64,000 nucleotides of DNA from an uncultured Chlorobiaceae bacterium (GCA_964523395.1 CAZFXS010000004.1:141581-205580), one strand, 5' to 3'. Positions 2,995 to 52,440 are shown, counted from the first letter of the stretch. Program-made: numbers and translations. The notes: a model not told the origin generated them from the sequence alone.

Positions 2995-3096
2995 ATGATC
3001 GGCACAACAATATCCCACTACAAAATTCTGGAAAAATTGGGCGAAGGCGGACCTGACCGCCGAAGCAGTGCACCTTATTGGAAAGTAACATTATGA
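2995..3096 (+). CDS. 33-aa uORF or kinase 5' relic (MIGTTISHYKILEKLGEGGPDRRSSAPYWKVTL); stop overlaps the kinase ATG
   Basis: First 19 codons encode 18/19 residues identical to the downstream kinase N-terminus; ATGA overlap at 3093-3096. Confidence 0.6.
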   Translation: MIGTTISHYKILEKLGEGGPDRRSSAPYWKVTL

Positions 3097-5222
3097 TTGG
3101 CAGCACGATTTCTCATTATAAGATACTCGAGAAGCTCGGCGAAGGCGGCATGGGCATTGTGTACAAGGCCCAGGACCTGACCTTAGACCGAATGGTCGCA
3201 CTTAAATTTCTTCCACCTCATCTTTCAGCATCGGAAGAAAACAAAGCCCGCTTCATGCGCGAAGCGAAAGCAGCCGCGGCGCTCAATCACCCGAATATTC
3301 TCGGCGTCTACGAAATTGATGAGCAAGATGGTACGCTTTTCTTCTCCATGGAATACGTGGAAGGAAAAACACTGAAGGCCCACATTGCCAGTCTGAAATC
3401 GGGATCCGGTATCCCCTTCGATGACGCAATCAGATGGACAAAACAAATTGCTCACGGATTAAAATCCGCTCACGACAAAAATATTATTCACCGCGATATC
3501 AAACCCGAGAATGTGATGCTGACGAAAGACGGGCAGCTTAAAATCATGGACTTCGGCATCGCGAAACTTACCGGAAGCACCGGTGTGACGAAAACCGGTG
3601 TTTCTATCGGTACGCTCGCGTACATGTCGCCGGAACAGGCGCAGGGCATTGCCGCCGACCACCGTTCCGATATCTGGTCGCTTGGTGTAATATTGTATGA
3701 AATGCTCACCGGCGAAGTCCCGTTCAGAGCGGAACATGAAGCAGGGTTGCTTTACCTCATTGTGAATGAAAATCCTCCTCTTCCGAGCGCGATGGATAAG
3801 AAAATCCCGCGCCAGATTGATTCGGCGGTCATGAAAATGCTCGAAAAAGACCGTGAAAAGAGATTTGGTACAACGGAAGATGTCATCATCAGCCTCGACC
3901 AGGTCCGCAAAGAAATTGAAGCGGCTGCCTCCGGGCCAAAGACTAAAAGCGTGGCAGTTCTTCCCTTCGGCAACATCAGTCCCGACAAGGAAAGCGATTA
4001 CTTCGGCGACGGGTTAACCGAAGAACTCATTGTCAACTTATCCAAACTGAAGGAAATCCGCGTTGTACCGCGCGCGACATCCATGCAATACCGCGGTTCA
4101 AACAAAGACGTAAAAACCATCGGACGGGAACTCGGCACACGGTACATCCTTTCCGGCAACGTGCGCAAGTTTCAGGATAATCTACGCATCAGCGTCGAAC
4201 TCATAGACAATGAAACGGAAGAACAAATCTGGGCGGAAACATATAAAGGAAAACTTGCCGATGTTTTTGATATTCAGGAACAGGTATCGAAGCAAATCGT
4301 CGAAGCATTAATGGTAAAATTATCGCCCAAGGAAAAAATCGTACTGACGAAACGTTCGACAGATAATCCTGAGGCATTTGATTGTTACCTGCGGGCAAGG
4401 GATTTCCTGTATAAACTTACAAAGAACAATGTGCAGTTCTCCATCCAGCTGTTCCAGCGCGCAATAGAACTGGATAACCGCTACGCTGTTGCATACGCTG
4501 GACTTGGCGAGGCATACGCGACGATGTATAATTATTTTGAATCGAGCGAAAGCTTACTCGACAAAGCGATTGAAGCAAGCTTGAAGGCGTTGATGTATGA
4601 TTCGACGCTATCGGAGGCGTACGCTGCGCTTGGTCTCGCGTACTTTGACAGGAAAGAACTGGATGAAGCGGTTACGGCTACTCAAAAGGCAATAGAGCTC
4701 GATCCAAACAATTATATTGCCTACTGGATCCTGGGGCGTATCTATCATTCCACCGACCGCGACATCGAAGCGGCTGATCTGTTCAAGAAAACTATAGAGT
4801 TGAATGAATCTTTTTATTCGGCATTGAACGACCTTCTCAACGTGTACGAACGTCTGGGCGACAAGGTGAAATGGATGGAAACCATGGATTCGCTGCTAAA
4901 ATTCTTTCCTGTCTATCTTTCTCAACATCCTGATGACGCTCGCGGGCAAATGTATTACGCCATCCATCTTGCCGCGGCAGGAAGAAAAGAAGAAGCAAAG
5001 ATCCAGGGTGCGAAAGCTCTGGAATTAAATCCCGGCGATTCACTTATGATGTACAACGCCGCGTGCATGTATGCGCGTCTTGGTGAAACCAAACTTGCGG
5101 CGAAAACACTTAAGGATGCCGTTGCCGCAGGGCAGGAAGATTTTGAATGGATTAAGAGAGATTCGGATCTCGATTCAATCCGTAACGAACCCGATTACAT
5201 TGAAATGATGGAAGGGAGATAG
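3093..5222 (+). CDS. Hanks-type Ser/Thr protein kinase with TolB-like domain and TPR repeats
   Basis: LGEGGMG, VALK, HRDIKPEN, DFG, YMSPEQ; SVAVLPFGNIS...DGLTEELI domain; TPR helices. ATG 3093 preferred over the TTG at 3078. Confidence 0.93.
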   Translation: MIGSTISHYKILEKLGEGGMGIVYKAQDLTLDRMVALKFLPPHLSASEENKARFMREAKAAAALNHPNILGVYEIDEQDGTLFFSMEYVEGKTLKAHIASLKSGSGIPFDDAIRWTKQIAHGLKSAHDKNIIHRDIKPENVMLTKDGQLKIMDFGIAKLTGSTGVTKTGVSIGTLAYMSPEQAQGIAADHRSDIWSLGVILYEMLTGEVPFRAEHEAGLLYLIVNENPPLPSAMDKKIPRQIDSAVMKMLEKDREKRFGTTEDVIISLDQVRKEIEAAASGPKTKSVAVLPFGNISPDKESDYFGDGLTEELIVNLSKLKEIRVVPRATSMQYRGSNKDVKTIGRELGTRYILSGNVRKFQDNLRISVELIDNETEEQIWAETYKGKLADVFDIQEQVSKQIVEALMVKLSPKEKIVLTKRSTDNPEAFDCYLRARDFLYKLTKNNVQFSIQLFQRAIELDNRYAVAYAGLGEAYATMYNYFESSESLLDKAIEASLKALMYDSTLSEAYAALGLAYFDRKELDEAVTATQKAIELDPNNYIAYWILGRIYHSTDRDIEAADLFKKTIELNESFYSALNDLLNVYERLGDKVKWMETMDSLLKFFPVYLSQHPDDARGQMYYAIHLAAAGRKEEAKIQGAKALELNPGDSLMMYNAACMYARLGETKLAAKTLKDAVAAGQEDFEWIKRDSDLDSIRNEPDYIEMMEGR

Positions 5223-36030: not shown

Positions 36031-36327
36031 ATGTTTGTCATTAGAGATATTATGTACTGCAAGCCGGGACAAGTCCGCGCAATGGTTGAGAAGTTCAAGG
36101 AGCTCAACAAAGTGTTGAAAAAATTCGGATACCCGCCCGGGAGAATCCTTACCGACGTCTGTGCTGAACGGTACTGGACGGTTGTCTCGGAGATGGAGGT
36201 TAAGAACCTCGAAGAGTACACCGAGATGTCGAGAAAAACCATGAAGGACAAAAAACTCCAGCAAGCCATGAAAAACTATCACGACCTTGTAGACCACGGA
36301 CGTCGTGAGATTTATATGGTGGAATGA
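36031..36327 (+). CDS. NIPSNAP-like / dimeric alpha-beta barrel small protein
   Basis: GGAGG SD; F.IRD..YCKPG...RILTD....YWTVV.E pattern; fold assignment is inference. Confidence 0.65.
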   Translation: MFVIRDIMYCKPGQVRAMVEKFKELNKVLKKFGYPPGRILTDVCAERYWTVVSEMEVKNLEEYTEMSRKTMKDKKLQQAMKNYHDLVDHGRREIYMVE

Positions 36328-36376
36328 TCCTGCCATAATCAAGATCCGGCATTCTTATTATTTCCCCTTAACGAAG

Positions 36377-39300
36377 ATGGTGACAACACGTATTGATAAC
36401 AAACGGAACGCCATCTTCATTTTTTTTCTTCTCTGTCTGCTAGGATTCAACACCGGATCTCCGGCTCAACAGGCAAATCCTGCGTTAACGTTTTACACCG
36501 CAACTTCATTTTCACAAGGTGAATTCGGGTTCGGCCTTTCTGTCGTATCGGATTCTTCAATCTGGTATACTACAAATACCGGTGTGTTTCATTTTGACGG
36601 CCGCCGTTCGATGAAACATCTCGACGCATCCCGGTTTCATACATCGCAAATAGAAGTCCTTCTAATCGATGCCGTCTCCGATAACAACGTCTGGGTTCTC
36701 GGGCACGATTCGAAAACGTGGAAAAAAACAATGTTCCACTTCGATGGAAACACATGGAAGTCAGTTTCGTTTCCCCAGGTATTCACCGATCCGAATGATG
36801 ACCTCGTCGTCTTCAGACTGCGGATGTATTCATACAATAATCGTACACTCGGTTACGCCGCGGGACAGGATGGCCTTGTCTATATGTATGACGGAACCAC
36901 ATGGAAGATTATCCCGAGGTTTACCAACGAAACACTCCGCGGACTGCGGATCTATGCGCCAAACAATGTGTGGGTGGGCGGAAAAAACGGAGCAATATTT
37001 CATTACGACGGTCAGCGCTGGATTCCCGCCCAGTTTTCTGACGCCTCAAACAACATTTACTATTTTGATCTGGCATTTCCGTCACAAACAGACGGGTGGG
37101 CAGTTGGAAAAGGAGGCATAGCACATTTCAACGGACAAAGCTGGCGGACCGTTTCTACCCCCACTACATCTACAATTACCACAATCACCATGATTGCGGG
37201 GGATAACGGATGGGCGGTGACAGACAATGGTACGGTTCTCCATTATGATGGAATGCATTGGAACATCTTCAAACAAATGTCCCGGGATGCCGGCCTTACT
37301 TCTCTGCAGGCATTGGAACAACACGAAAAGTTTACTTTATATTTTCTTAATACGGAAGGGGTGGTCGTTTCGTATTGGGGAATTGTTCCTTCGTTTACCG
37401 ATGCGTCGGCATCTTCAAATATTCATCTGTATGGCGGAGACGCATTACTTGCTGATTTCGACAACAATCAAACTGAAGATTTGATAACATCGGCTTTCAC
37501 TTCCTTCCCCGACAGAATATACTCAAATCGTGGCGACGGTTTTTTTACTGAAATGACAAACCAATTACACACTACAAATACTCCTCTTGCAACCGCAACC
37601 CGGCTTGCAGACCTGGATAACAATGGATTTGTCGATGTGTACCAGACACAATCCCCGGCGCGCGACGTTTGGTACAGAAATTTCGGGTCGTGGAAATTTG
37701 AGCCTGTGACATCACCTGTTGCATTCCCCACCCTCGATGGCCGCTGTGTCTCAAAATTCGCCGACATGGACTGCGATGGCGACTTGGATTTAGTCTATAT
37801 GCAGAGCCAGGCATCGGAAGTTCAATGGCCATTTGCAATTTTTACAAACGACGGGATTGGAAATTTTTCACCCCCGAGAACTATTGGCCGGCCAATAGCT
37901 GCCGGGGGAATCACATACTCATTTTTTATTGCCAACCTTAATGACGACAACATCCCTGATCTCTTTAAATTCAATCTCGGCGATAAATGTGAATTATATT
38001 TTTATAACAGCGGTGAGGTGCGCGATACGGCAACCTGGGCTGGAGCTGACGGCACATTCTTCGCTGCATCTCCAAACATTACCTGGGCCGCCCCAATCGA
38101 TATCAATAATGATGGTTCAATGGATATTTGTATGGTCTCCAGAACAGGCCAGGCCGCGTTCTTCCTGAATAATGGGAAGGGAAAATTTACTCCCGCAAAT
38201 TCTCTTGCCTTCGATCCCCGTGGAGAAAATCCCATGGGAAATTTTACCGATATCGATTGCGACGGTGACATGGATTTATTTCTTGTCGATCGCTTTTATA
38301 AAAACGACAACGAAGCGTTCTCTGAGTACAGGGAAGTTTCGTTTCGCCAAACTTCTTTTCCAACGTTCAGCGACTTTGATGGCGACGGCGATCCTGATAT
38401 TATCACTTCGGCATATCGCGACAATGGCAGGTTGTATGTCCTGAAAAATGAGCTCAACCCCTCCGGCGCAGTCCGCATTTCCGTGAACGGCATCAGAAGC
38501 AATTCTTTTGGAGTTGGCGCCCGAGTCAATCTCTGGAAATATCATGATGCCGGCAAGGAACTTGTTGATGTCCGCGAAGTTATTTCGCCCGGCCCGCTCT
38601 ATTTCTACGTTGATTCCACCAACCGGTATGATCTTGATGTAAAGTTCCCAAGCGGAATCGAAGTTCATTCGGCTTCGATTCAACCCGGGACGCATGAAAT
38701 ATCAGAATTCTCTTTTCCGATGAATTACGTGTGGGATTTTTATTACTCGCTTCAGCGATCATGGAAATACACAAACGGAATACTGGAGCTCGTAAAACTC
38801 GGAATTTTTGGCGGGATGTTTATTGTCGCTTTTCGGGTTTCCAAAAAATTCAAAGCCGACCGGTACGTGCGCCATCCGTTATTTATTGCCGCCATGTTGC
38901 TTTTGTATATCCTCATCATCCATGCGACGGTTCGGAACGGAACGGTCATGGCAACAATTCTTCCGCTGGGAGCTGTACTTCTTATCAATGCCGGATGGGT
39001 TGCAACAACGCGCAACATCGTGCTTCGGCGGGAAGCAAATTATGTTTCTCATTTCAGATTGCTGGAACTCCTCGGCGAAGGAGGAATGGGAAAAGTATAT
39101 AAAGCCGCTGACAGCATCACAAAGAATATCGTAGCGGTAAAAGTTCTCAATCCGGCAATTATGAAAGATGTCGAAAACCGGAAACGGCTGAGAAACGAAG
39201 GCAATATTCTTTCGTCGTTTTCTCATCCGAACATTGTGAAAGTATTTGAGGTCGGAGAAACAGAAACACAAAGTTTTATCGCGATGGAATATCTGCCGGG

Positions 39301-39841
39301 CGGCACACTCCGGCAGCATCTCGAGAAAACGTATCCACTCCCCACACAAGAACTTGGCAGGATATTTTTACAGATATGCGACGGCGTGTCAGAAATTCAT
39401 TCGCGCGATATCGTCCATCGCGACCTGAAAACCGGCAACATTATGCTCGACGACAATACTAACATCCGCATTATGGATTTTGGATTGTCAAAGTCGCCGC
39501 TGGTAACAACCATGACCACACTTGGCACTGTCATCGGAACACTCGGCTATGTTTCACCGGAGCAAGTGACAAGTATGAATGTGGACCGCCGTGCCGATAT
39601 TTTTTCGCTCGGCGTGGTATTGTATGAATTACTCACAAACCAGCTTCCGTTCAAAGGTGAAAATGAAATTGCCGTTATCCACTCCATCTTCAATACGATT
39701 CCTCCTGCTCCTTCCACACTTACCACCGGTATTCCTTCCTCACTCGACGGAATTATCTCAACGTGTCTTCAAAAAAATCCCGACGACCGCTATCAGTCTG
39801 TCGCAGAACTCCGCGTTGCTCTTGAAAAGGAATTTTGCTAA
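36377..39841 (+). CDS. Receptor-like Ser/Thr kinase: signal peptide, (H/M)(Y/F)(D/N)G repeats, seven FG-GAP-like repeats, ASPIC/UnbV-like domain, three TMs, kinase
   Basis: Six H(F/Y)DG..W-type repeats; DFDNNQ, DLDNNG, DMDCDG, NLNDDN, DINNDG, DIDCDG, DFDGDG; GIRSNSFGVGARV; LGEGGMG, VAVK, HRDLKTGN, DFG, SPEQ. Confidence 0.88.
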   Translation: MVTTRIDNKRNAIFIFFLLCLLGFNTGSPAQQANPALTFYTATSFSQGEFGFGLSVVSDSSIWYTTNTGVFHFDGRRSMKHLDASRFHTSQIEVLLIDAVSDNNVWVLGHDSKTWKKTMFHFDGNTWKSVSFPQVFTDPNDDLVVFRLRMYSYNNRTLGYAAGQDGLVYMYDGTTWKIIPRFTNETLRGLRIYAPNNVWVGGKNGAIFHYDGQRWIPAQFSDASNNIYYFDLAFPSQTDGWAVGKGGIAHFNGQSWRTVSTPTTSTITTITMIAGDNGWAVTDNGTVLHYDGMHWNIFKQMSRDAGLTSLQALEQHEKFTLYFLNTEGVVVSYWGIVPSFTDASASSNIHLYGGDALLADFDNNQTEDLITSAFTSFPDRIYSNRGDGFFTEMTNQLHTTNTPLATATRLADLDNNGFVDVYQTQSPARDVWYRNFGSWKFEPVTSPVAFPTLDGRCVSKFADMDCDGDLDLVYMQSQASEVQWPFAIFTNDGIGNFSPPRTIGRPIAAGGITYSFFIANLNDDNIPDLFKFNLGDKCELYFYNSGEVRDTATWAGADGTFFAASPNITWAAPIDINNDGSMDICMVSRTGQAAFFLNNGKGKFTPANSLAFDPRGENPMGNFTDIDCDGDMDLFLVDRFYKNDNEAFSEYREVSFRQTSFPTFSDFDGDGDPDIITSAYRDNGRLYVLKNELNPSGAVRISVNGIRSNSFGVGARVNLWKYHDAGKELVDVREVISPGPLYFYVDSTNRYDLDVKFPSGIEVHSASIQPGTHEISEFSFPMNYVWDFYYSLQRSWKYTNGILELVKLGIFGGMFIVAFRVSKKFKADRYVRHPLFIAAMLLLYILIIHATVRNGTVMATILPLGAVLLINAGWVATTRNIVLRREANYVSHFRLLELLGEGGMGKVYKAADSITKNIVAVKVLNPAIMKDVENRKRLRNEGNILSSFSHPNIVKVFEVGETETQSFIAMEYLPGGTLRQHLEKTYPLPTQELGRIFLQICDGVSEIHSRDIVHRDLKTGNIMLDDNTNIRIMDFGLSKSPLVTTMTTLGTVIGTLGYVSPEQVTSMNVDRRADIFSLGVVLYELLTNQLPFKGENEIAVIHSIFNTIPPAPSTLTTGIPSSLDGIISTCLQKNPDDRYQSVAELRVALEKEFC

Positions 39842-39900: not shown

Positions 39901-41631
39901 ATGGCACAAACACCGAAATCATTCACCGACATCCAAAAACAAATCGGCGATAACATCAGCAGGCTTTCAACGATGTTTATGGAGGTTTCCGCCCTGGTAA
40001 AAACCGGCGGCAATTCAGCTGACATCCAGAAAAAAATCGACAAGCTTTTCATGGTTGTTATGGATTCTCATCGCTCGCTCGGCAATGAAATCGGTTCGAT
40101 GACCACTAAAGACGAAAAGATGGAAGAGCGATATGCTATTCTGCTGGAAGAAAAGCGACGCCTCGAAGTATTATATACATCGGGTATTGTGTTCTCTTCC
40201 GAAACGGAAATGCAAACATTAATGGAAAAAGCCATCGATATTGTTGTACATGAACTGAAAGCGGATGCGGGTTTTATTGTGCTGACTGACGCGAAAGGTG
40301 AAGTCGAATCTGTGTACGCCCGCAATATGAATCCCGACGACGCCACGGCGAAAGAGATGAGCATGTCAGTCATCCGAAATACCATCGGCCATTCAGCGCC
40401 GACGCAAGTAAATGACATCAACACCGAAGTACAGTTTTCCAAACAGCATAGTATCGTAAAGTTGGGCATTACTGCCGTTGTCTGTGTGCCTCTTGTATCG
40501 GGACAGCGCGTACTCGGCGCGGTCTATCTGGACCGCCGAAACAAAAACCTGCCGTTCACAGAAACCGACCTTGTGTTCCTTCTCGCGTTCGCCCGGCAGA
40601 TTGTGCGCGGGCTCGCGGTATCCTCGGAAATCGCGGCACTCGAGCAAAAATTGCTTGCCGAAGCGGCAATGAATTTTGATGACCTGAGAAAAGAGTTCAA
40701 TTGTACCAACATTATCGGCTCAAGCAAGAAACTGTTCGACGTGCTGAAAGTAGCGTCAAAAATCGCACCCACCGACGCATCCGTCGTGATCCTCGGCGAG
40801 AACGGCACGGGAAAAGACCTTCTCGCGCATGCGATTCACCGCAACAGCCCACGCGCGGACAAACCGTTTGTGACTATTAACTGCGGGGCAATACCGGCGG
40901 ATTTGCTGGAGTCGGAATTATTCGGGTATGATCCCGGCGCGTTTACCGGCGCGACGAAGTCAAAACCGGGAAAGCTTGAACTTGCCGACAGCGGTACAGT
41001 ATTCTTTGACGAAATCGGTGAGCTCAGCACCAATCTTCAGGCAAAACTCCTCCGTGTAATTCAGACAAAAGAGATTGAGCGGTTGGGCGGCGTTCTTCCT
41101 AAAAAAATTGACGTACGGATACTTTCCGCGACAAATAAAAACATCAAGGAAATGATTGCGAAAGGAGAGTTCCGCGAAGATCTTTATTATCGATTGAAAG
41201 TCATTGAACTGTCAATGCCCCCGCTCCGGGAGCGGAGGGAAGATATCGCGGATCTTGCCGGTGCATTTCTAAAAAAATATTCGACATCATCAGCGTTAAA
41301 CTTTTCTCCTGAAGCTCTTGACATCCTCGAGCAATATCCCTGGCACGGCAACGTGCGTGAGCTGGAAAATGTCATTCACCGGTGCACGGTGCTGGTGAAA
41401 AACAATACAGTGGAAGTTTCCGATCTGCCGCCTGAACTCATTCAGCAGGCAGAACAGGAACCGGGTATCAAGGTGGGAAAACCTCTGCTTGACGCGGAAA
41501 CTGAATTCCGCAGAATGTACATCATAAAAACCCTCCGCAAGTGCGGTTCCGTTGCCGAAGCGGCAAAAGAACTTGGCATCAACCGCACGCACTTCTATAA
41601 ACTCCTCAGCCAGTTGGAAATAGAATACTAA
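39901..41631 (+). CDS. Sigma54-dependent enhancer-binding protein (helical N-terminus, GAF, AAA+, Fis HTH)
   Basis: GAF (VCVPL...GAVYLD); GENGTGKD; GAFTGA; FFDEIGE; FREDLYYRL; AEAAKELGINRTHFYK. Confidence 0.94.
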   Translation: MAQTPKSFTDIQKQIGDNISRLSTMFMEVSALVKTGGNSADIQKKIDKLFMVVMDSHRSLGNEIGSMTTKDEKMEERYAILLEEKRRLEVLYTSGIVFSSETEMQTLMEKAIDIVVHELKADAGFIVLTDAKGEVESVYARNMNPDDATAKEMSMSVIRNTIGHSAPTQVNDINTEVQFSKQHSIVKLGITAVVCVPLVSGQRVLGAVYLDRRNKNLPFTETDLVFLLAFARQIVRGLAVSSEIAALEQKLLAEAAMNFDDLRKEFNCTNIIGSSKKLFDVLKVASKIAPTDASVVILGENGTGKDLLAHAIHRNSPRADKPFVTINCGAIPADLLESELFGYDPGAFTGATKSKPGKLELADSGTVFFDEIGELSTNLQAKLLRVIQTKEIERLGGVLPKKIDVRILSATNKNIKEMIAKGEFREDLYYRLKVIELSMPPLRERREDIADLAGAFLKKYSTSSALNFSPEALDILEQYPWHGNVRELENVIHRCTVLVKNNTVEVSDLPPELIQQAEQEPGIKVGKPLLDAETEFRRMYIIKTLRKCGSVAEAAKELGINRTHFYKLLSQLEIEY

Positions 41632-42903: not shown

Positions 42904-44139
42904 TTACTTAGTATCGGATTTTGGATCAACAATAGCTCCGACAAAAAGTATTAGACCGGTCTCATCATCTACAATTGCGAAGAAAAAAGGGTGGTCAACT
43001 ATCATTTCAAACGGCTTTGGTGGATCCGATCTAAGCGGCATGGTAGCGCAAACATCTAGCAACGTAATTGCGGCAGCTTCTGTCCCTTCTTCGTTCACGT
43101 CAAGATATGTTTTATGAATTACATCACTTATCATTACTGAAGATTGCGTCATTCGACTAAAATCCGCGCCCCCGTCGAACGCAATGCTCATGCCAAAGCT
43201 TTTCAACACATCAACCAAAGACGCAGCGTAATTTATCTTATACTTTGGCACACCGATTAGTCCGTATCGCCGAGAAACCGCGGATGTTGCCCTACTCCAC
43301 CCTGCCGTACTAAGACCTTCCAAAAAAAGGTGGATACCCTCTCGTTCTTGAGGAAGAACAATGCACATGCTAAATCGTTTACCATACGGAATGCTGACCA
43401 ATTGAAATTCTGAGCTTTCAAAATATTCAAATGTACCATATTGATGCATCCGTGGATATTTTTTCTCAGACCCACCAAGCAACATAAACGGCATCATTTC
43501 TGTTTGGATGGTTTCAAACGGTTTTGTCCATTCACCATTGAAGTAAATCGCGTTAAGAATGACCAGGAGATCATCTTTCTTAAATTGATCGATAATTTTA
43601 TCGATCTTCCCATGTGTCTTATTCCTCACCCATTCATTTATTTCTTCTGTCGCGGATGGTTGCGCAAAATCCTTCACGAAGGTTTCAACAGAATACTGTT
43701 CATTGCAATCTTTCACAAACTCTGGCTTGAGTTCAAACGGTTCGTTTAACCAAAGTGAGTTCGCGATGTTGAGCTCTGCCGAACTATCTGGTACCATTAA
43801 TAAATTCATTAAAAGGGAATTTGACTTGTTAATCCTGTCTTGTGTAAACTCCTGGAGCTGTAGCGCTGTCTTGATTGAAGTTTCCGTTGCCCCGGCTGCA
43901 CCGTTGTTGATAATAGAAAGCGCGTAAAAGATACTTACAGGGGAAATAAATATGTTTTTTTCTGGTTCCCGTGAAGCCAAGGTTTTCAGAAGTTTAAAAC
44001 CAAATTCATTGACGGCGGATATGTAATCGATGTTGATTTCTGATTTCCGAGTACCGTCTTGAAAAGCAGCGCTTTGCTTCGCGCAAAAAGGTAGGAGGGT
44101 CACAAGTGCCGCAAGATATTTGACTGTATCAATGTTCAT
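42904..44139 (-). CDS. Secreted serpin (serine protease inhibitor)
   Basis: NIFISPVSI, LNAIYFNGEW, hinge EEGTEAAA, DHPFFFAI...LFVG; N-terminal signal-like segment. Confidence 0.93.
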   Translation of the reverse strand: MNIDTVKYLAALVTLLPFCAKQSAAFQDGTRKSEINIDYISAVNEFGFKLLKTLASREPEKNIFISPVSIFYALSIINNGAAGATETSIKTALQLQEFTQDRINKSNSLLMNLLMVPDSSAELNIANSLWLNEPFELKPEFVKDCNEQYSVETFVKDFAQPSATEEINEWVRNKTHGKIDKIIDQFKKDDLLVILNAIYFNGEWTKPFETIQTEMMPFMLLGGSEKKYPRMHQYGTFEYFESSEFQLVSIPYGKRFSMCIVLPQEREGIHLFLEGLSTAGWSRATSAVSRRYGLIGVPKYKINYAASLVDVLKSFGMSIAFDGGADFSRMTQSSVMISDVIHKTYLDVNEEGTEAAAITLLDVCATMPLRSDPPKPFEMIVDHPFFFAIVDDETGLILFVGAIVDPKSDTK

Positions 44140-44166: not shown

Positions 44167-45006
44167 TTAAACCACCTTCCAATATGCCGCGCTGTCATCA
44201 ATCTTTTCAAGATTGCATTGAATAGAATTCAACGCAATAAATTCCGTCACAGCACGCCTGCACGCTGGCCAAGAGTAGTAATCATCCACAATAACAAATC
44301 CGCCCTTGTTGACTTTGTGATAAAGATTCGTTAACGCATCCATCGTTAATGAGTAGAGGTCGCCGTCGAGACGGAGAACCGCAAGCTTGTCAACCGGCGC
44401 GCTCGGAAGAGATTCATTAAACCACCCCGGAATGAATTTCACGTTGTCATCCAGCAATCCGAAACGTTCAAAATTCGATTTTACTTTTTCCATGGAAACT
44501 TTCAGGTAATCGTTTTGGCTCATATCCCAACCATCATCACCCGATTTCGGTGCCGGCAATCCTTCGAATGAATCCGCCGGCCAGATATTCCGTTCGGTGA
44601 TATTGTGCGCTTTCAAAAGCGCGCGGAAGAAAATTGCAGTTCCGCCGCGCCAGACTCCGGTTTCAATAAAATCGCCTGGAACGTTGTTGCGCAACACTTC
44701 TTCAACACAATACTGGACGTTATCCAGCCTCCGGTGTCCCACCATAGTATAACAGACAAGCGGCCAGCCGCTTCCTTCGTCGCGTTCATGCTGACTGAAC
44801 GCGCGTTGTTTCACCAGCAAAAGATTTTTCTTCTTCAGAAACTTCACAAGCGCGTCACGGAGAGGCACAATGACCGGCCGCAGTACCGGTGGAACCGCAA
44901 ACCCCGGTGTCCCCGAATGAATCAGTGCCCACGAACTTTCATCGTAGATGGAGCCTGTAAGAATTTTTTTCAACAGCTCGAGATATTGGTGGTCAGCTTC
45001 TGTCAT
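44167..45006 (-). CDS. TylF/MycF/NovP-family O-methyltransferase
   Basis: TMVG.RRLDN, GDFIETGVWRGG, DSFEGLP, PGWF.ESLP, LRLDGDLY, VDDY; start at ATG 45006. Confidence 0.92.
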   Translation of the reverse strand: MTEADHQYLELLKKILTGSIYDESSWALIHSGTPGFAVPPVLRPVIVPLRDALVKFLKKKNLLLVKQRAFSQHERDEGSGWPLVCYTMVGHRRLDNVQYCVEEVLRNNVPGDFIETGVWRGGTAIFFRALLKAHNITERNIWPADSFEGLPAPKSGDDGWDMSQNDYLKVSMEKVKSNFERFGLLDDNVKFIPGWFNESLPSAPVDKLAVLRLDGDLYSLTMDALTNLYHKVNKGGFVIVDDYYSWPACRRAVTEFIALNSIQCNLEKIDDSAAYWKVV

Positions 45007-45529
45007 TTTTTTTAGATGTGTGATTTGAACGGTCATCGATAACAATCGTTTCGGCAATGCGGTCGTGAACAGTACGGCGATCTGTTCGGAGAAAGTACTG
45101 GAAAAACCCAAAGCCGAGCTCCAGCGCTGACGCGCCATACCCGAGCGAGCGCTCGAATGAATGCCAGAGACTCATCTGTTCATGCACCAGCGAAACGATG
45201 CGGATGCGGCAGATTTTTTTACCAATCGTTTGTCCGTTAAAGAAATAAACGCTCAGCGTGAAGTAGCCAACCAGCCAGACAATGCTGTACCAGTTCTTAA
45301 AGAATGTAAATTGCAGATTAATATGCTCATCGGAAGAAATGATTCCCGTTTTCTGAATAAGAATCCCGCCGCCGACAGTGATCCCGACGAATAAAATTCC
45401 CGCGATCAGAAAATCGAGCAGAAGCGCAATCGCCCGGCGCGGGAATGATGCCAGAGGCAAACCTGAAAGCACTGACTCCCGAGAAGGATCTGGAGGACAA
45501 TAATTATTTTGATTAATATTTCCACTCAT
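44993..45529 (-). CDS. RDD-family membrane protein
   Basis: LASFPRRAIALLLD, GQTIGKKICRIRIV, HDRIAETIVI; start 45529 or 45592. Confidence 0.9.
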   Translation of the reverse strand: MSGNINQNNYCPPDPSRESVLSGLPLASFPRRAIALLLDFLIAGILFVGITVGGGILIQKTGIISSDEHINLQFTFFKNWYSIVWLVGYFTLSVYFFNGQTIGKKICRIRIVSLVHEQMSLWHSFERSLGYGASALELGFGFFQYFLRTDRRTVHDRIAETIVIDDRSNHTSKKNDRS

Positions 45530-45601
45530 TTTTTTTGGAACATGCTCTCGAATGTACCCATAACTTTGCAGAAACTCAATGCTTTCCTTCATGCCGGTGT
45601 G

Positions 45602-45663
45602 TGTCGCCCGATACCGACATCAACACGCCAATCAGCCATCTCTTTTGTCGCCCTGTAACGACA
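45602..45663. promoter_or_regulatory. Two candidate enhancer (UAS) palindromes
   Basis: TGTCG-CCCGATAC-CGACA (45602-45619) and TGTCG-CCCTGTAA-CGACA (45646-45663), 44 bp apart. Confidence 0.7.
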
Positions 45664-45684
45664 GATTTTATCGATTTTCTTTAA

Positions 45685-45697
45685 AATCAATTATTTC
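45685..45697 (+). promoter_or_regulatory. IHF-like site
   Basis: AATCAATTATTTC versus WATCAANNNNTTR (1 mismatch), in an AT-rich stretch between the UAS and the core promoter. Confidence 0.45.
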
Positions 45698-45723
45698 AGC
45701 TCTTTTTCTCCACTTTTAAGCAA

Positions 45724-45738
45724 CGGCACGGGATTTGT
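45724..45738 (+). promoter_or_regulatory. Putative sigma54 (-24/-12) promoter
   Basis: CGGCACGGGATTTGT versus consensus TGGCACGnnnnTTGC; GG-N10-GT, so the -12 C is replaced by T. Confidence 0.6.
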
Positions 45739-45777
45739 CAGTATCTCACCTGTTCATTCACGCACATTAAACAGTTC

Positions 45778-45972
45778 ATGCAAAAACACATACTCATCAT
45801 CGATGATGATACACAGGAGCTTCGCAAGTTAAGAGAGATTCTTACACGCGAAGGGTACGATATCATGACGGCAACTGATAAGCAGACGGCAATTCAGATT
45901 TCCGAGAAAGTACCAATCGGTTTTATCCTTGCAAAAGCATCGATGCTCGGTTTTCCCAATGAAAAACAATAA
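45778..45972 (+). CDS. Half-receiver micro-protein (64 aa) lacking the phospho-acceptor Asp
   Basis: ILIIDDD...LREILTREGYDI.TA; third strand GFILAK has no Asp; protein ends there. Confidence 0.75.
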   Translation: MQKHILIIDDDTQELRKLREILTREGYDIMTATDKQTAIQISEKVPIGFILAKASMLGFPNEKQ

Positions 45973-46002: not shown

Positions 46003-48096
46003 ATGAACACTTTGTTGAAAACGATTTGTATTGCTCTTTGCGTTTATACAACCGGTCTGTCTCAATGGCTGCAAACTTCGGGTCCGGAAGGCGGCGCCGC
46101 CTTCGCAATCTTTGCCGACGGCAGTAATCTCTACGCGGGTATGGCGGGAAATGCCGGAGTGTTCCGGTCAACCGACGGCGGTGCGACCTGGGAGCAAAAA
46201 ATCAACGGCATGAACTATCAGTCCACCACTGTTATTAGCAAAAGCGGTTCCTATCTTCTCGCCACCGGAACTGTCGGTTTGTACCGCTCAACCGATAACG
46301 GCGACACCTGGGTTGCGGCTACAGGATTACCGCCGGGACACGGCGTGAACTCACTGGCAGTTGACGGAGCGAATGTTATCGCGGGAACATCCGGAAAAGG
46401 CATTTATGTTTCAACCGATAATGGCGATACATGGACACCTGCAAGCACAGGACTTCCCGGCGCAGGCGCCACCACCACGGTCGGAAATGTTGTTATCAAC
46501 GGTTCAACCATTCTCACCAGCGCTTCGGATTTCGGTACGACAACAACAATGTACCGTTCCACAAATTTTGGCGCTTCATGGACAGCGGCTGCGACCGGCC
46601 TTCCCGCCGATTATTCATTGTATTACGGAATGTGCATCGACGGATCTACAATCTATGCCGGCGGCGCGTATCTTTATAAAACTACCAACAACGGCGACAC
46701 CTGGACACCGGTCGAGAATGGAATTCCCAACTACTCCAGCATCATGAGTATTTCCGCAAACGGGACTTCCATCTTCGCGGCTGCAATGAATTACATCTAC
46801 CGCACTACGGATGGCGGCTCTAACTGGAGTCCAGCAACCGGCGGTTTGCCGTTTATGAATTTCATGTCGGTACGGATTGCAGGTTCAACTGTCTACGCCG
46901 GTTCAATTGCCAATGGTATATACAGTTCAACGGATAATGGGGTCACGTGGACACAAAAAGTCAACGGTTTAAAGGCAAGAGATATGAGTGGATTCCTTAT
47001 CGACGGGACGACGCTCTATGCCAACGGCAACAGCATATTCAAGACTTCAGATAACGGAGATACGTGGGAGAATGTTCGCGGCAATCTTAAAGACTCCTCA
47101 AGCATGCCTACACTTGTGTATGTCAACGGTTCAACGATGTTCGAACGCGATTTCCCGGCGACAGGCCTCGAGCGTTCAACGGACGGCGGCGCTACATGGA
47201 CTGTCGTTGGCAACGGTTTGTCACCATTCGGCACTGTCACCGGAATCGTCGATGTCCCTGGCGGATTGCTGACTGCCAGCAACCGTGTCTATAAAAGCAG
47301 TGATAACGGCGATAACTGGGTGCAGGTTGATTCATCGCTTGGATTGTTTGTCAGTTTTTCAGCTTTGACAAAAATCGGCACTACTGTTTATGCATATGGA
47401 CTCGGGGTTGCCAAATCCACAGACGACGGGGCAACATGGGTAAAAGCCGATTCTGGTTTGCCGGCGTTTTATTCACCGTCTACTCTTGTCGGAAATGGTT
47501 CAGGTTTATACGTATCAAGCGGGTTTACGTCTGGCATCTATCGTTCAACCAATGACGGGCAATCATGGTCGTTGTGGACCAGCGGCGCTTATTCACAACT
47601 GCTCATTCACGGAAACGACCTTTTCGGATGCCGGGACAATGACGGCATCTTCATTCGTAAAAACTTCACAGGCGCTTTTACCAGAATTTCTACCGGGCTG
47701 CCGAGCCCTAATTTCCTTTACACGTTTGTCATCCACAATGGATGGATGTTTGCAGGTACCGGCGGTAATAGTGTCTGGCGCAGGCCTTTGTCGGATGTTA
47801 CGGCTGTGGAAGAGATCGCCGGAACTCTTCCAACGGAGTTTATGCTTTCTCAGAATTATCCAAACCCGTTTAATCCAATGACAAACTTCGAATTACGAAT
47901 TGCGGATTTCGGATTTGTGACGCTTCGGGTGTACGATGTACTTGGAAGGGAAGTTACATCTCTGGTGAACGAGACGCTTCAACCCGGGACCTACAAAGTA
48001 TCGTGGGACGCAGGCAATCAGACCAGCGGAGTTTATTATTATAAACTACAGGCGGGAAATTATTCCGAAACGAAAAAGATGTTGCTCGTCAAATAA
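46003..48096 (+). CDS. T9SS type A sorting-domain protein with BNR/Asp-box propellers
   Basis: Signal peptide; many S(T/S)D(N/G)G.TW Asp-boxes; QNYPNPFNP...VYDVLGREV...GTY...GVYYYKL...KKMLLVK. Confidence 0.9.
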   Translation: MNTLLKTICIALCVYTTGLSQWLQTSGPEGGAAFAIFADGSNLYAGMAGNAGVFRSTDGGATWEQKINGMNYQSTTVISKSGSYLLATGTVGLYRSTDNGDTWVAATGLPPGHGVNSLAVDGANVIAGTSGKGIYVSTDNGDTWTPASTGLPGAGATTTVGNVVINGSTILTSASDFGTTTTMYRSTNFGASWTAAATGLPADYSLYYGMCIDGSTIYAGGAYLYKTTNNGDTWTPVENGIPNYSSIMSISANGTSIFAAAMNYIYRTTDGGSNWSPATGGLPFMNFMSVRIAGSTVYAGSIANGIYSSTDNGVTWTQKVNGLKARDMSGFLIDGTTLYANGNSIFKTSDNGDTWENVRGNLKDSSSMPTLVYVNGSTMFERDFPATGLERSTDGGATWTVVGNGLSPFGTVTGIVDVPGGLLTASNRVYKSSDNGDNWVQVDSSLGLFVSFSALTKIGTTVYAYGLGVAKSTDDGATWVKADSGLPAFYSPSTLVGNGSGLYVSSGFTSGIYRSTNDGQSWSLWTSGAYSQLLIHGNDLFGCRDNDGIFIRKNFTGAFTRISTGLPSPNFLYTFVIHNGWMFAGTGGNSVWRRPLSDVTAVEEIAGTLPTEFMLSQNYPNPFNPMTNFELRIADFGFVTLRVYDVLGREVTSLVNETLQPGTYKVSWDAGNQTSGVYYYKLQAGNYSETKKMLLVK

Positions 48097-48130: not shown

Positions 48131-50230
48131 ATGAAAATGTTTGTGTGTGTGCTCGCGACTATTGTGCTCTGTAACATTGCAGCGGCTCAATGGATACAAA
48201 CAAATGGTCCATCCGGCGGTACTGTGACACGTCTTGTCACTAATGAGACAAACGGTTACCTTTTTGCGCTGGCAAGCGGTGACGCGTACCGTTCAACCGA
48301 TCAAGGTACCACCTGGACGCGAAGCACTGCCAGTCTTCAGGCAAATCTCGGCGCTACTACAATAACAGCATCGGGAACATCGGTCTATATCGGCATCGGA
48401 AGCGGAAATACCACATATATCCTCTCCCGTTCGACCGATAACGGCGACACATGGACACCGGCAACCGCAACAGGCATACCGGCATTCTATATTCCTTCCG
48501 CAATGACAGTTACCGGTTCCAGACTGCTGCTCTACGCAACCTACCTTCTTGGTGGAGGAAAAATGTTCGCTTCCACCGACGGAGGTGAAAATTTTACCGA
48601 ATCCGGAGCAGGTTTACCGACCAATTTCGCCGCAGGATATTTTACGCAGAAGGGTTCAACAATCTTTGCCAGCAACACTAACCCGGGAATCTATCAATCG
48701 ACTGATAATGGAGTAAACTGGACAAAATCCAATTCTACCATCGGAGGCATCACCGGATTGACATCAAACTCTTCAGGAGTCTTTGTTTCTACCAGCACAA
48801 CCGGAGTTTACCGATCTAATGGCACGGATACGGTCTGGACAAAAATTAATCCCGACACTCCGTCGAACTTTACTTCTTCGATTCTCGCGACATCCACAAA
48901 TCTTTTCATTGCTCTTGGCGGCGCGATGATGCGCGCAGACCAAAATGGTGGCTCGTGGGACAGTGCACGCGTCGGACTCCCACCGTATAACGCAGGCACA
49001 GCCATCAGCGCCATTACTAAAACCGGTTCAAGCATCCTCTGTGCGTACGCAAAGCACGGCATTTACCGCACTACCGATAACGGCGTAAACTGGTTTCAGT
49101 CTCACGAGGGAGTGAAGTCGTTAAAAATCAACGGCATTCATGCAAGCAATGGATATTTATTTGCAGCGGGAGATCAATATGGGAATTTCAGAAGCGCCGA
49201 TCACGGAGACACGTGGACAGAAATCAACAATGGTATTTCCGTAACAGCTGGCTGGTTTTGTTTTGCGCGCGTCGGATCAGATGTGCTCGCAGGCGCCGGT
49301 TCATCTCTGCTGTACCGGAGTTCAGATAACGGAAATAACTGGACATTAAGCAACTCCGGATTCGCTCTTACCAACTCATTCGCGTTTTATGTTGAAGGCA
49401 ACACCGTCTACACCACAGGAGCAGCCGGTGTATCGAAATCGACAGATGGCGGATTGACGTGGAACACGCTTCCTGCGGGTTATCTCTTCTATGAAGGAGG
49501 GCTCGATATCTGGAAAGACGGTTCGAACATCCTGACCGGGTCTAATGTCGCAAGTCATCGCTCAACCGATGACGGTGCGTCATGGACAACAACCGCCGGA
49601 GCGATAGGAGCATTTACACAAATGGATTCAGTTCTTTTCAACGCTTCGCTTACTCTTGGTGTAAGAAAATCAACAGATCATGGTGCGAGCTGGACGGCGA
49701 CAGGAAGTTTTCCGTTTACGGTTGGCCCGCAATGTCTTACGGCCAAAGGGCAGGATCTTTATGCCGGAACGAATGACGGTGTTTATCGCTCAACAAATTA
49801 CGGAACTACGTGGACTGCAATTAATGACGGCTTTGCCCCGAAAACCTCTATCTACAAAATAACATTTGACGACCAGTATCTTTATGCGGGGACAGTTACG
49901 CGCAGTGTCTGGCGGCGGCCGCTTTCCGAAATCACTGACGTGAAGGAAATCTCTCAGGAAATTCCCTCTTCATATTCTCTCAGCCAGAATTATCCGAACC
50001 CGTTTAATCCAACGACAAATTTCGAATTACGAATTGCGAATTTCGGATTTGTGTCGGTGAAAATATTTGATGTGCTTGGAAACGAAATAACGACGCTGGT
50101 AAATGAATCGCTACAACCCGGAACTTACAATGTATCTTGGAATGCAAGCAATCAGCCCAGCGGCGTGTATTATTACAGGCTTTCGTCAGGGTCATTTTCC
50201 CAAACAAAAAAATTATTACTGATGAAATAA
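48131..50230 (+). CDS. T9SS type A sorting-domain protein with BNR/Asp-box propellers (paralog 2)
   Basis: Same architecture; GGAAG upstream. Confidence 0.9.
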   Translation: MKMFVCVLATIVLCNIAAAQWIQTNGPSGGTVTRLVTNETNGYLFALASGDAYRSTDQGTTWTRSTASLQANLGATTITASGTSVYIGIGSGNTTYILSRSTDNGDTWTPATATGIPAFYIPSAMTVTGSRLLLYATYLLGGGKMFASTDGGENFTESGAGLPTNFAAGYFTQKGSTIFASNTNPGIYQSTDNGVNWTKSNSTIGGITGLTSNSSGVFVSTSTTGVYRSNGTDTVWTKINPDTPSNFTSSILATSTNLFIALGGAMMRADQNGGSWDSARVGLPPYNAGTAISAITKTGSSILCAYAKHGIYRTTDNGVNWFQSHEGVKSLKINGIHASNGYLFAAGDQYGNFRSADHGDTWTEINNGISVTAGWFCFARVGSDVLAGAGSSLLYRSSDNGNNWTLSNSGFALTNSFAFYVEGNTVYTTGAAGVSKSTDGGLTWNTLPAGYLFYEGGLDIWKDGSNILTGSNVASHRSTDDGASWTTTAGAIGAFTQMDSVLFNASLTLGVRKSTDHGASWTATGSFPFTVGPQCLTAKGQDLYAGTNDGVYRSTNYGTTWTAINDGFAPKTSIYKITFDDQYLYAGTVTRSVWRRPLSEITDVKEISQEIPSSYSLSQNYPNPFNPTTNFELRIANFGFVSVKIFDVLGNEITTLVNESLQPGTYNVSWNASNQPSGVYYYRLSSGSFSQTKKLLLMK

Positions 50231-50274: not shown

Positions 50275-52440
50275 ATGAACATACTGTTACAGATCTGCCT
50301 GATTATCGTTGCAACATCGCTGACAGTTGCACAGCCTTTTTGGGAACGGTTGCCGGGACCAAATGCTACTCACAGCATTAATTGCCTTAAGGAGGATGCC
50401 GCCGGTGGAAAATTGTATGCCGGTACTGCCCTCGGTGGCGGGATATATGTATCGGCCGATAACGGGGCTACGTGGTCCCTTAAAGCTTCTGGTTTGGATC
50501 CGAACGCTTCAATCCTTGATATTGAAACCGATAACGCCGGCAACGTGTACGCCCTTGGTGTTAAAACATACAAATCAACAAACGGAGGCGATACATGGGA
50601 AAAACTTGACAATAGCACCGACGGCATGACTACATTACATATTACATCCGGAGGAGTTATTTTTGCAGGGCAAGAAACAGCTGTAGGAAACGGGATTACC
50701 AGATCAACCGATGGCGGAACTACCTGGGAATTTGCCAGAACCGGCCTTCCCACAACCATTCTCGGCCCATTCACCTATTATCGCAGTGTCTCGAGTATTA
50801 CCTCCGATGGTTCCGGAAATCTCTACTGCACAGTAAATGGCGGAAATGCGTCCACTGAAGCCGGAGTGTACAAATCAACAAACAATGGCGATACATGGAC
50901 ACGCACAAGCAACGGTTTGCTTGCAAACGTTAGCGTCGAGCCGGTACTGTACAGTCCGAACGGAATGATATATGCCGCGGTCAGAAACCGGGTGTACCAC
51001 AGCACTGACGCAGGCGCAAGCTGGGTTCTCGGCGATTCCATTCCAATGGCGAACTCCACCCTCATCAGCCGGCTGGCGGTGAATTCTTCGCATCAGATTT
51101 TTGCAGGTACAACGGCCGGAGTCTTCCGTGCCGCGAAAGGCGGAATTGGCTGGGCTTCAATCAACGTTCCTTCAAGCAGTAATTACGATTTCATTGTTAC
51201 TTCAGCAAACGCATACCTTGCGGCACCCCTTGAGATCTGGGGAACGCACGGCGGCATTCACCAATCAACCGACGATGGGGCTACATGGAACACATTAAAC
51301 AACGGCATAAATAACACACCGACATTCGCTCTCAAAGTCGGCTCCTCCGGCGTTATTTTGAACGGACTTGGCGGCGGCAGAGTTGAATTCTCTTATGATA
51401 ATGGTGCCACATTTACGCGGGCGTATCTTTCATACACCGGCCTCTTCACATTTGCTGCTCTTGCCGCGTTTGAAGAGAATCCTTCCGGCACCATTGTCGC
51501 AGCAACCGGAGAAGGGCTGCACACATCAACTGATCAAGGTGTTACGTGGACTAAAACATCGTCAGTCTCAAATCAGCGCGCATTGACATTAGACCAGAGC
51601 GGGAATTTTTTCGCAGCCAACGGAAGCGGCGCGTACAAATCAACAGATAACGGACAAACGTGGAATTCACTCGGCGGGGGCGGTGATGCCTATGGCATAT
51701 TGGTAACACAGGCCGGTACAATTCTGACAGGAACGTATAACAGCGGTGTTAACCGCACAACCGACGGCGGTACAACATGGACGAATTCGGGTACCATCGT
51801 GTTTGGTAATGTAACGATAGGAAAATTTGTTCAGCTTGACAATGGAACGATTTATACGCACGCTCTTCTCGGAATTTTCAAATCGACGGATGACGGCGCA
51901 ACATGGGCAGCCCTGACAGGAACACCCATTGGCGTACAATCCAGGAAAATTGAAAGCACCGGCAATATATTACTGCTTGGTACTCCGGAGGGGCTTTACA
52001 AAACCATAGACGGCGGCGCAAACTGGACAAAACACGCCGACGGCCTCATGAATACTGTTCTCGATCATCTTTCTGTTGGACCCGATGGACGGTTGTACGG
52101 CGCAGGCGGCGCCGGAATTTACCGCACAACAAATCCGATTACCACCGGCGTCGAACTATCATCCAATATCATTCCATCAGCGTTCGAACTTACACAGAAT
52201 TATCCGAACCCGTTTAACCCAATGACAAATTTCGAATTACGAATTGCGAATTTCGGATTCGTGACGTTACGTATTTACGATATGCTTGGAAAAGAAGTCG
52301 CATCGCTGATTAACAAAACGCTTCAACCCGGAATATACAAAGTTTCGTGGGACGCGGGTGCACAACCCAGCGGTGTATATTTTTACCGTCTCACCGCAGG
52401 TGAATTTAATCAAACAAAACAAATGATACTCATCAAATAA
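50275..52440 (+). CDS. T9SS type A sorting-domain protein with BNR/Asp-box propellers (paralog 3)
   Basis: GGAGG SD before ATG 50275; Asp-boxes; NYPNPFNP C-terminal domain. Confidence 0.9.
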   Translation: MNILLQICLIIVATSLTVAQPFWERLPGPNATHSINCLKEDAAGGKLYAGTALGGGIYVSADNGATWSLKASGLDPNASILDIETDNAGNVYALGVKTYKSTNGGDTWEKLDNSTDGMTTLHITSGGVIFAGQETAVGNGITRSTDGGTTWEFARTGLPTTILGPFTYYRSVSSITSDGSGNLYCTVNGGNASTEAGVYKSTNNGDTWTRTSNGLLANVSVEPVLYSPNGMIYAAVRNRVYHSTDAGASWVLGDSIPMANSTLISRLAVNSSHQIFAGTTAGVFRAAKGGIGWASINVPSSSNYDFIVTSANAYLAAPLEIWGTHGGIHQSTDDGATWNTLNNGINNTPTFALKVGSSGVILNGLGGGRVEFSYDNGATFTRAYLSYTGLFTFAALAAFEENPSGTIVAATGEGLHTSTDQGVTWTKTSSVSNQRALTLDQSGNFFAANGSGAYKSTDNGQTWNSLGGGGDAYGILVTQAGTILTGTYNSGVNRTTDGGTTWTNSGTIVFGNVTIGKFVQLDNGTIYTHALLGIFKSTDDGATWAALTGTPIGVQSRKIESTGNILLLGTPEGLYKTIDGGANWTKHADGLMNTVLDHLSVGPDGRLYGAGGAGIYRTTNPITTGVELSSNIIPSAFELTQNYPNPFNPMTNFELRIANFGFVTLRIYDMLGKEVASLINKTLQPGIYKVSWDAGAQPSGVYFYRLTAGEFNQTKQMILIK

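Follow-up and report, generated by a model that had tools for sequence, protein, structure and literature searches.

The 185-bp intergenic region between a minus-strand gene of the RDD family (44993-45592) and a plus-strand ORF of 64 codons (45778-45972) contains two palindromes and a GG...TTG string, which raises the question of whether these form the enhancer and promoter of a sigma-54-dependent transcription unit and, if so, which activator acts there and on which genes. The region is part of a 64-kb stretch of DNA, referred to as the window, for which an earlier sequence-only reading had proposed upstream activator sites, an IHF site and a sigma-54 core in the classical order. We find it very probable that positions 45602-45739 are the control region of a sigma-54-dependent operon, comprising the gene of a half-receiver protein and three genes of secreted BNR/T9SS proteins, and that this operon is activated by the EBP encoded at 39901-41631. 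The elements of the region are given below in their order along the DNA.

45602-45619, no strand assigned: distal dyad UAS1, TGTCGCCCGATACCGACA, with its centre 114 bp upstream of the -24 GG and at about -138 from the predicted start
45646-45663, no strand assigned: proximal dyad UAS2, TGTCGCCCTGTAACGACA, with its centre 70 bp upstream of the GG and at about -94
45664-45723, no strand assigned: spacer, AT-rich (25% G+C), with T-tracts phased at about 10 bp
45724-45739, plus strand: sigma-54 core promoter, cGGCACGggatTTGTc, with the -24 GG at 45725-45726 and the -12 element GT at 45737-45738

Both dyads match TGTCG-N8-CGACA exactly, at the coordinates that the sequence-only reading had given, and are separated by 44 bp from start to start. 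Two exact copies of this pattern are present in the 64-kb window against 0.08 expected, and two copies were reached in 1 of 100 shuffles. Because of this excess over expectation, and because both exact copies fall in one and the same intergenic region, the dyads are beyond chance. A search of the 64-kb window for a further combination of dyads with a core returned none besides 45602-45739. UAS1 and UAS2 are regarded here as putative activator-binding sites of the 39901-41631 EBP.

The -24 GG begins 61 nt past the proximal dyad, and the GG-N10-GT core that had been claimed at this distance from the second dyad is indeed present at 45725-45738. The GG and the G doublet lie exactly 10 nt apart in a context resembling YTGGCACG-N4-TTGCW, as in sigma-54 promoters, while the C of that class at -12 is replaced by T in the window. 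From the usual convention for the -12 element, transcription would start near 45750. With an approximate sigma-54 matrix, the core of the window scores 9.6 bits and ranks 17 in the window; taken alone, it is not above chance. Sigma-70-like matches in the promoter region are at chance level, and Rfam and tRNA scans of the same region identified no family and no tRNA. A search for rpoN by an RpoN-box match within the 64-kb window gave no match; the presence of sigma-54 in the source genome is suggested by the GAFTGA-bearing EBP. Bacteroidota are known to have sigma-54 promoters (PMC9723704, PMC12316311), and a literature search on sigma-54 in Ignavibacteria and on Ignavibacterium RpoN found no relevant report.

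The region was compared with related loci, which are designated by L numbers. Thirty-three metagenomic loci with a true homologue of the half-receiver gene were collected by using alignment A1, and more were obtained by exact-protein look-ups; the core statistics come from 27 non-redundant upstream regions, with 264 upstream regions of the same loci serving as controls. An element YGG(C/T)A(C/T)-N5-TTG is located 28-98 bp before the ATG of the half-receiver gene in all 27 non-redundant regions. The GG is conserved in 27/27, the A in 26/27, the two T residues in 27/27 and 26/27, and the G at -13 in 26/27 (L136 being the one relative that does not have it), although the apparent conservation of GG and TTG is somewhat inflated by the choice of the best matrix match for each locus. 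The median core score is 11.8 bits, as compared with 1.6 in the controls (Mann-Whitney p = 4e-17), and the score of the window core is reached by 1.1% of the control upstream regions.

The dyads are conserved together with the core. Nearly all relatives possess one or two TGTCGC-N6-GCGACA dyads upstream of the core, situated 49-120 bp upstream of the GG, and in most of them the centre of the distal dyad is 103-120 bp from the GG. Of the 24 near-consensus dyads (at most one mismatch) present in 343 kb of related DNA, 23 fall within 260 bp upstream of a half-receiver gene, whereas shuffles of the same DNA yield 0-1 such sites. Alignment A2 of the closest relatives further reveals that the invariant columns are the two dyads and the GGCA...TTTG core and that the remaining DNA diverges, a pattern that has the form of a classic phylogenetic footprint. 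As in a bacterial enhancer, the two dyad sites (centres at about -138 and -94) are situated within about 80-150 bp upstream of the predicted start and are conserved in both sequence and position in most relatives. The order of UAS, UAS and sigma-54 core that the sequence-only reading had proposed is strongly backed by this footprinting.

The same reading had named the GT at -12 as the weak point of the promoter. In promoter compilations, no part of the sigma-54 element is usually better conserved than the GC at -12, and the core of the closest relatives L172 and L173, GGCACGGGATTTGCC, has TTGCC where the window has TTGTC, a single C-to-T difference. Both observations speak for an alternative in which the architecture is ancestral and the C-to-T change at -12 has crippled the promoter of the window or rendered it leaky and in part independent of the activator. 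The -12 base, however, is unusually variable among the 27 non-redundant relatives (A in 3, C in only 11, G in 4 and T in 9), the downstream genes of the window are intact ORFs, and the active E. coli pspA promoter with the core TGGCACGCAAATTGTA reads TTGTA, i.e. GT at -12. Because pspA also has T at this position, T is not disqualifying. We consider a crippled promoter improbable, and this alternative is a modifier of the main model more than a true rival to it. With GC in the nearest relative, a variable base in the family and GT in pspA, the non-consensus -12 element is a minor weakness; compared with the GC found in L172, this T may make the promoter weaker or its control less tight.

A second peculiarity of the sigma-54 control region of the window is the distance between its dyads. 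The centre-to-centre distance in the relatives is 33-35 bp. Alignment A2 reveals a 10-bp insertion between the dyads (within 45620-45645) that occurs only in the window and in L172/L173, as compared with L121, L123 and L174-L179, and this insertion accounts for the 44 bp observed here. The insertion displaced the proximal dyad by 10 bp, and since this corresponds to one helical turn, the helical phase of the dyads is kept. The four helical turns that had been taken as the established geometry are therefore not the norm of the family; the 44-bp distance is limited to the window and its closest relatives.

The candidate activator and a protein kinase are encoded next to each other on the plus strand.

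36305-39841, plus strand: receptor Ser/Thr protein kinase (Pfam Pkinase 1.1e-58 and FG-GAP_3)
39901-41631, plus strand: sigma-54 EBP (Pfam Sigma54_activat 1.5e-68, GAF and HTH_8)

The EBP consists of a coiled-coil/GAF sensor, an AAA+ domain with the GAFTGA loop (exact motif at 40936) and a C-terminal Fis-type HTH, and its gene is the sole EBP gene in the window. It scores below every NCBIfam equivalog cut-off, with NifA as the best match (381 bits versus a cut-off of 529) and GlrR at 270 versus 763. Full-length orthologues with 55-68% identity are found together with the half-receiver gene in almost every locus that has enough flank. The stop codon of the EBP gene is located 131-279 bp upstream of the half-receiver ATG in 13 of 21 loci, and in those 13 loci the dyads and the core make up nearly all of the intergenic DNA. 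In the window, the distance from the EBP gene to the promoter is 4.1 kb and includes four genes on the opposite strand, which encode an aldo-keto reductase, a serpin, a TylF-type methyltransferase and the RDD protein. By comparison with the relatives, these four genes have been inserted between the EBP gene and the promoter, and the dyads and core remained next to the half-receiver gene. An EBP with a GAFTGA motif and an HTH is thus genetically linked to the sites, as is the case for bacterial enhancers. The proposal of the sequence-only reading that the 39901 EBP is the cognate activator gains support from this conserved synteny with the dyad promoter.

The kinase gene is directly upstream of the EBP gene. 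In its product, a propeller with FG-GAP repeats is N-terminal, the Pkinase domain (about residues 910-1178) is C-terminal, and membrane segments are also present. The synteny of kinase and EBP is observed in L121, L123, L135, L138, L144, L146, L152, L165, L168 and L084; the last of these, from an Ignavibacteria bacterium MAG, contains the whole cassette. The order kinase - EBP - half-receiver is kept in almost every locus with enough flank. It is from this conserved adjacency that the receptor Ser/Thr kinase is proposed to set the activity of the EBP, probably via the N-terminal GAF region of the latter. The extracellular part of the kinase varies, with a BNR-like propeller and FG-GAP repeats in the window and Reg_prop/Y_Y_Y in L165 (3620-6907); the sensor appears to have been swapped while kinase and EBP were conserved. 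We also note a second Ser/Thr kinase gene in the window (3078-5222), which encodes a PknB-like kinase with TPR repeats; the lineage seems rich in eukaryote-like kinases.

The identity of the dyads bears on the choice of activator. The sequence-only reading had described the UAS motif as new. The consensus of the GlrR/QseF activator-binding site is TGTCN10GACA (PMC3045617). Both 18-bp dyads of the window fit this consensus and are of the GlrR/QseF type. The glmY promoter of E. coli K-12 comprises ABS1 TGTCTGTAAATCACGACA, ABS2 TGTCGCTTTCTGGCGACA, ABS3 TGTCTCTTTTTAGCGACA and the core TTGGCACAGTTACTGCA, with a distance of 33 bp between ABS1 and ABS2, and the relatives' consensus TGTCGC-N6-GCGACA equals ABS2. 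The EBP shares 44% identity with E. coli GlrR over the AAA+ domain and the HTH, and the recognition helices, NRTHFYKLLSQ in the EBP and NRTEFYKLLSR in GlrR, match at 9 of 11 positions. With a site equal to glmY ABS2 and a near-identical recognition helix, the motif is a known one. The EBP was also considered as a GlrR orthologue, and this assignment was rejected: it possesses GAF rather than a receiver with its Asp, its neighbour is a Ser/Thr kinase rather than GlrK, its target is protein-coding rather than glmY/glmZ, and its scores are below the NCBIfam cut-offs. In the clade of L145, L146 and L152, the HTH helix reads NRSHLHKLL in place of NRTHFYKLL and the distal dyad reads TGTTGC-N6-GCAACA in place of TGTCGC-N6-GCGACA; this may be a case of protein-DNA co-variation, anecdotal as a single event.

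Another possibility is that the sigma-54 promoter and its enhancers are real and that the dyads are bound by a different EBP with a similar HTH, encoded elsewhere. The 4.1-kb separation in the window would agree with this. In addition, EBPs with quite different HTH helices adjoin TGTCGC-N6-GCGACA dyads in L064, L088 and L111, and since their helices differ, the dyad type is not exclusive to one protein. This alternative is nevertheless very unlikely: almost all relatives have the EBP gene in the neighbourhood of the half-receiver gene, with direct adjacency in 13 of 21, the 39901 gene is the only EBP gene in the window, and the changed helix of the L145/L146/L152 clade goes with a changed distal dyad.

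A loose scan of genome contigs for TGTCG-N8-CGACA-N15-40-TGTCG-N8-CGACA, a pattern of low specificity, matched at least 120 loci, and its outcome agrees with the view that the motif is a known one. Among the matches listed, a strong sigma-54 core is present within 200 bp in 12 of 120 double-dyad loci, and an EBP gene is present within the same 8 kb in 9 of these 12. The core-bearing loci among the matches listed include Enterobacteriaceae, Burkholderiales, Spirochaetes, Clostridia, Myxococcota and Ignavibacteria, and the scan recovered both the L084 cassette and enterobacterial glmY promoters. The remaining 108 of the 120 loci listed are unrelated operators or coding repeats. The loose double-dyad pattern is not diagnostic across bacteria, while the spread of the core-bearing loci suggests that TGTCGC-N6-GCGACA is a widely used enhancer type. 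The scan also brought up a recurrent pair of palindromes that resemble TGTCGAGTATAGTCGACA and are set exactly 33 bp apart, the spacer between them being AT-rich; it occurs in MAGs of Erysipelotrichaceae, Treponema, Slackia and others (L006, L019, L026, L030, L050, L058, L065, L097, L098, L102 and L116). No sigma-54 core was found near these pairs, which presumably are an operator of another kind.

The finding that about 90% of the loose double sites in other bacteria are without a nearby sigma-54 core, among the matches listed, lends some weight to a further alternative, in which the dyads are ordinary repressor or activator operators of a housekeeping-sigma promoter and the GG...TTG string is coincidental or belongs to the Bacteroidota -7 box TAnnTTTG. 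TTTG is the best-conserved part of that box, and the conserved TTTG of alignment A2 could belong to it; moreover, the window core alone is at background level, and a weak sigma-70-like match at 45658-45687 overlaps UAS2. On the other hand, the GG is located exactly 10 nt from TTG-G in 27/27 relatives, the TA of TAnnTTTG is not conserved, alignment A2 contains no conserved -33/-35 element, and the neighbouring conserved regulator is a sigma-54 EBP. We therefore regard a housekeeping promoter as highly unlikely. The weakest alternative, that the palindromes are RNA hairpins (a terminator or attenuator) rather than protein-binding DNA, was rejected as carrying next to no probability: a terminator scan flags 45644-45665, followed by TTTTAT, and in many relatives the dyads are found past the stop codon of the EBP gene, on its strand, but the stem TGTCGC/GCGACA is conserved without compensatory changes while the loops vary, the stems are just 5-6 bp with loops of 6-8 nt, no plus-strand gene ends upstream in the window, and there is no Rfam match.

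A sigma-54 control region with distant activator sites leads to the question of how the DNA between UAS2 and the core might be bent. The sequence-only reading had placed an IHF-like site 21 bp downstream of the second dyad. The string itself, AATCAATTATTTC, is present at 45685-45697, 21 nt after the proximal dyad, and differs from the IHF consensus WATCAANNNNTTR by one mismatch; the position therefore stands, whereas the proposed function is not supported. An equally good match is obtained in 14% of shuffles of the spacer, and across 26 spacers the mean best mismatch to the IHF consensus is 2.27 as compared with 2.28 in shuffles. The site was rejected as a chance-level match that is neither conserved nor enriched, and the region differs in this respect from IHF-assisted sigma-54 promoters with a conserved WATCAANNNNTTR between UAS and core. 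Sigma-54 promoters independent of IHF are known (PMC2709558). The AA/TT autocorrelation in the spacer peaks at lags of 9-11 in the window and is weak across loci. The phased T-tracts suggest an intrinsic curvature of the spacer in place of an IHF site, and the AT-rich spacer is probably a looping or bending segment. A conserved island, ATTTCAG at 45693-45699, is located about 28 bp upstream of the GG and overlaps the 3' end of the IHF-like string; its A-T-C-G are invariant among ten close relatives in alignment A2.

The sigma-54 promoter is followed by four genes on the plus strand.

45778-45972, plus strand: half-receiver gene, 64 aa, first gene of the regulated unit
46003-48096, plus strand: BNR/Sortilin-type beta-propeller with a T9SS C-terminal sorting domain, second gene, 30 bp past the half-receiver gene
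48131-50230, plus strand: second BNR/T9SS paralogue, probably co-transcribed
50275-52440, plus strand: third BNR/T9SS paralogue, with its ATG at 50275, probably co-transcribed

The half-receiver product has 46 homologue clusters with 54-98% identity, nearly all of 64 aa, and several of its positions are invariant in alignment A1. Its AlphaFold model (pLDDT 87.8) has the order beta1-alpha1-beta2-alpha2-beta3 and superposes on the N-terminal half of receiver domains. The Pfam Response_reg match covers positions 1-52 of 111 with 27.6 bits, below the cut-off of 30.2. The end of beta3 reads ILAKA and provides no phospho-acceptor Asp; the 64-aa product is accordingly not a full (beta-alpha)5 receiver domain with such a residue. 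In every case the sigma-54 promoter is followed first by the half-receiver gene, whose product may be a feedback or adaptor protein. Exact-protein look-ups of the half-receiver and of the first BNR protein found no match.

No terminator was seen between the half-receiver and BNR genes, which are separated by intergenic gaps of 30-45 bp. A BNR orthologue follows the half-receiver gene in L121, L123, L124, L125, L165, L172, L174 and L178. The cargo after the half-receiver gene varies among the relatives and is always exported: BNR/T9SS proteins are found in the clade of the window, and small signal-peptide proteins that resemble outer-membrane proteins or lipoproteins are found elsewhere (L130, L139, L144, L147, L150 and L132). 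A general link between sigma-54 and the cell exterior has been described (PMC9723704), and the exported cargo fits this link.

Two observations were made on the other side of the promoter. The serpin gene (42904-44139; Pfam Serpin 3.8e-107) is missing from the otherwise collinear closest relative L172, where the order is EBP - AKR - TylF - RDD - half-receiver, and it looks like a recent insertion. The ORFs of the TylF-type methyltransferase (44167-45138) and of the RDD protein (44993-45592) overlap by 146 nt; the corresponding gene calls in L172 overlap by 44 nt, with an RDD product of 180 aa. Translation of the two probably begins at internal ATGs, in which case the RDD start would be near 45529, about 70 bp from UAS1.

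The following mechanism is proposed for the sigma-54 operon. Sigma-54 RNA polymerase would form a closed complex on the -24/-12 core at 45724-45739, and EBP dimers would bind the two 18-bp dyads through the Fis-type HTH. The bound dimers would then assemble the ATPase ring, which would contact the polymerase by looping of the AT-rich spacer. Remodelling of sigma-54 by the GAFTGA loop would open the promoter, and transcription would proceed from the predicted start through the half-receiver and BNR genes.

The promoter is real but of an ordinary sigma-54 type with known GlrR-type sites; it is conserved among the Ignavibacteria relatives and leaves the present picture of sigma-54 control as it was. 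Through it, an uncultured Ignavibacteria lineage, for which very little transcriptional regulation is known, gains a well-supported sigma-54 promoter and enhancer that can be tested, and a particular activator is tied to a particular target, the operon of the T9SS-secreted BNR propellers. The variable -12 base and the one-turn indel are natural variants for studies of sigma-54 stringency and enhancer phasing. The GlrR-type pair of helix and site is kept across phyla while the input has been swapped, from a receiver and histidine kinase to GAF and a Ser/Thr kinase. The cassette of kinase, GAF-EBP, half-receiver and secreted protein is uncharacterised and is more novel than the promoter. It is conceivable, and we put it forward tentatively, that Ser/Thr kinase, GAF-EBP, enhancer with sigma-54 promoter and half-receiver constitute an undescribed Ignavibacteria module, in which the kinase drives a GlrR-like activator, the truncated, non-phosphorylatable receiver is a feedback or adaptor output retained in all loci, and the secreted or envelope cargo (three T9SS BNR propellers in the window) is variable.

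Several known systems share part of this arrangement. NtrC at glnAp2 and NifA at nif likewise employ two dyads about three turns apart, about 100-140 bp upstream, and a looping activator, and NifA has the same GAF - AAA+ - HTH order as the EBP of the window. The half-sites, TGT-N10-ACA (16 bp) for NifA and TGCACC-N5-GGTGCA for NtrC, differ from the dyads of the window, and the unit of the window contains no nitrogen-metabolism genes. The E. coli pspA promoter depends on IHF. PspF acts at this promoter (PMC3709507), which likewise has upstream activator sites together with the GT at -12. In contrast to the EBP of the window, PspF has no sensor domain, and its site sequence is another one. In Myxococcus xanthus, NtrC-like EBPs with FHA domains are linked to Ser/Thr kinases; a eukaryote-like kinase replaces the histidine kinase there, as in the cassette of the window, where the EBP carries GAF instead of FHA and the coupling to the kinase is read from gene adjacency.

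The closest comparison is with GlrK/GlrR (QseE/QseF) at glmY/glmZ of Enterobacteriaceae, where the same 18-bp dyad is found upstream of a -24/-12 core. Where the EBP of the window has a coiled-coil and GAF region and a receptor Ser/Thr kinase neighbour, GlrR has a receiver at its N-terminus and a histidine kinase as partner. The glmY promoter has three sites, with ABS3 about 100 bp from the GG, whereas the window has two sites that are closer to the core (-94 and -138), and, unlike glmY, the promoter family of the window has no conserved IHF site. The target of GlrR is a small RNA and that of the window is a protein operon; GlrR belongs to Enterobacteriaceae, whereas the cassette of the window belongs to Ignavibacteria, as in L084.
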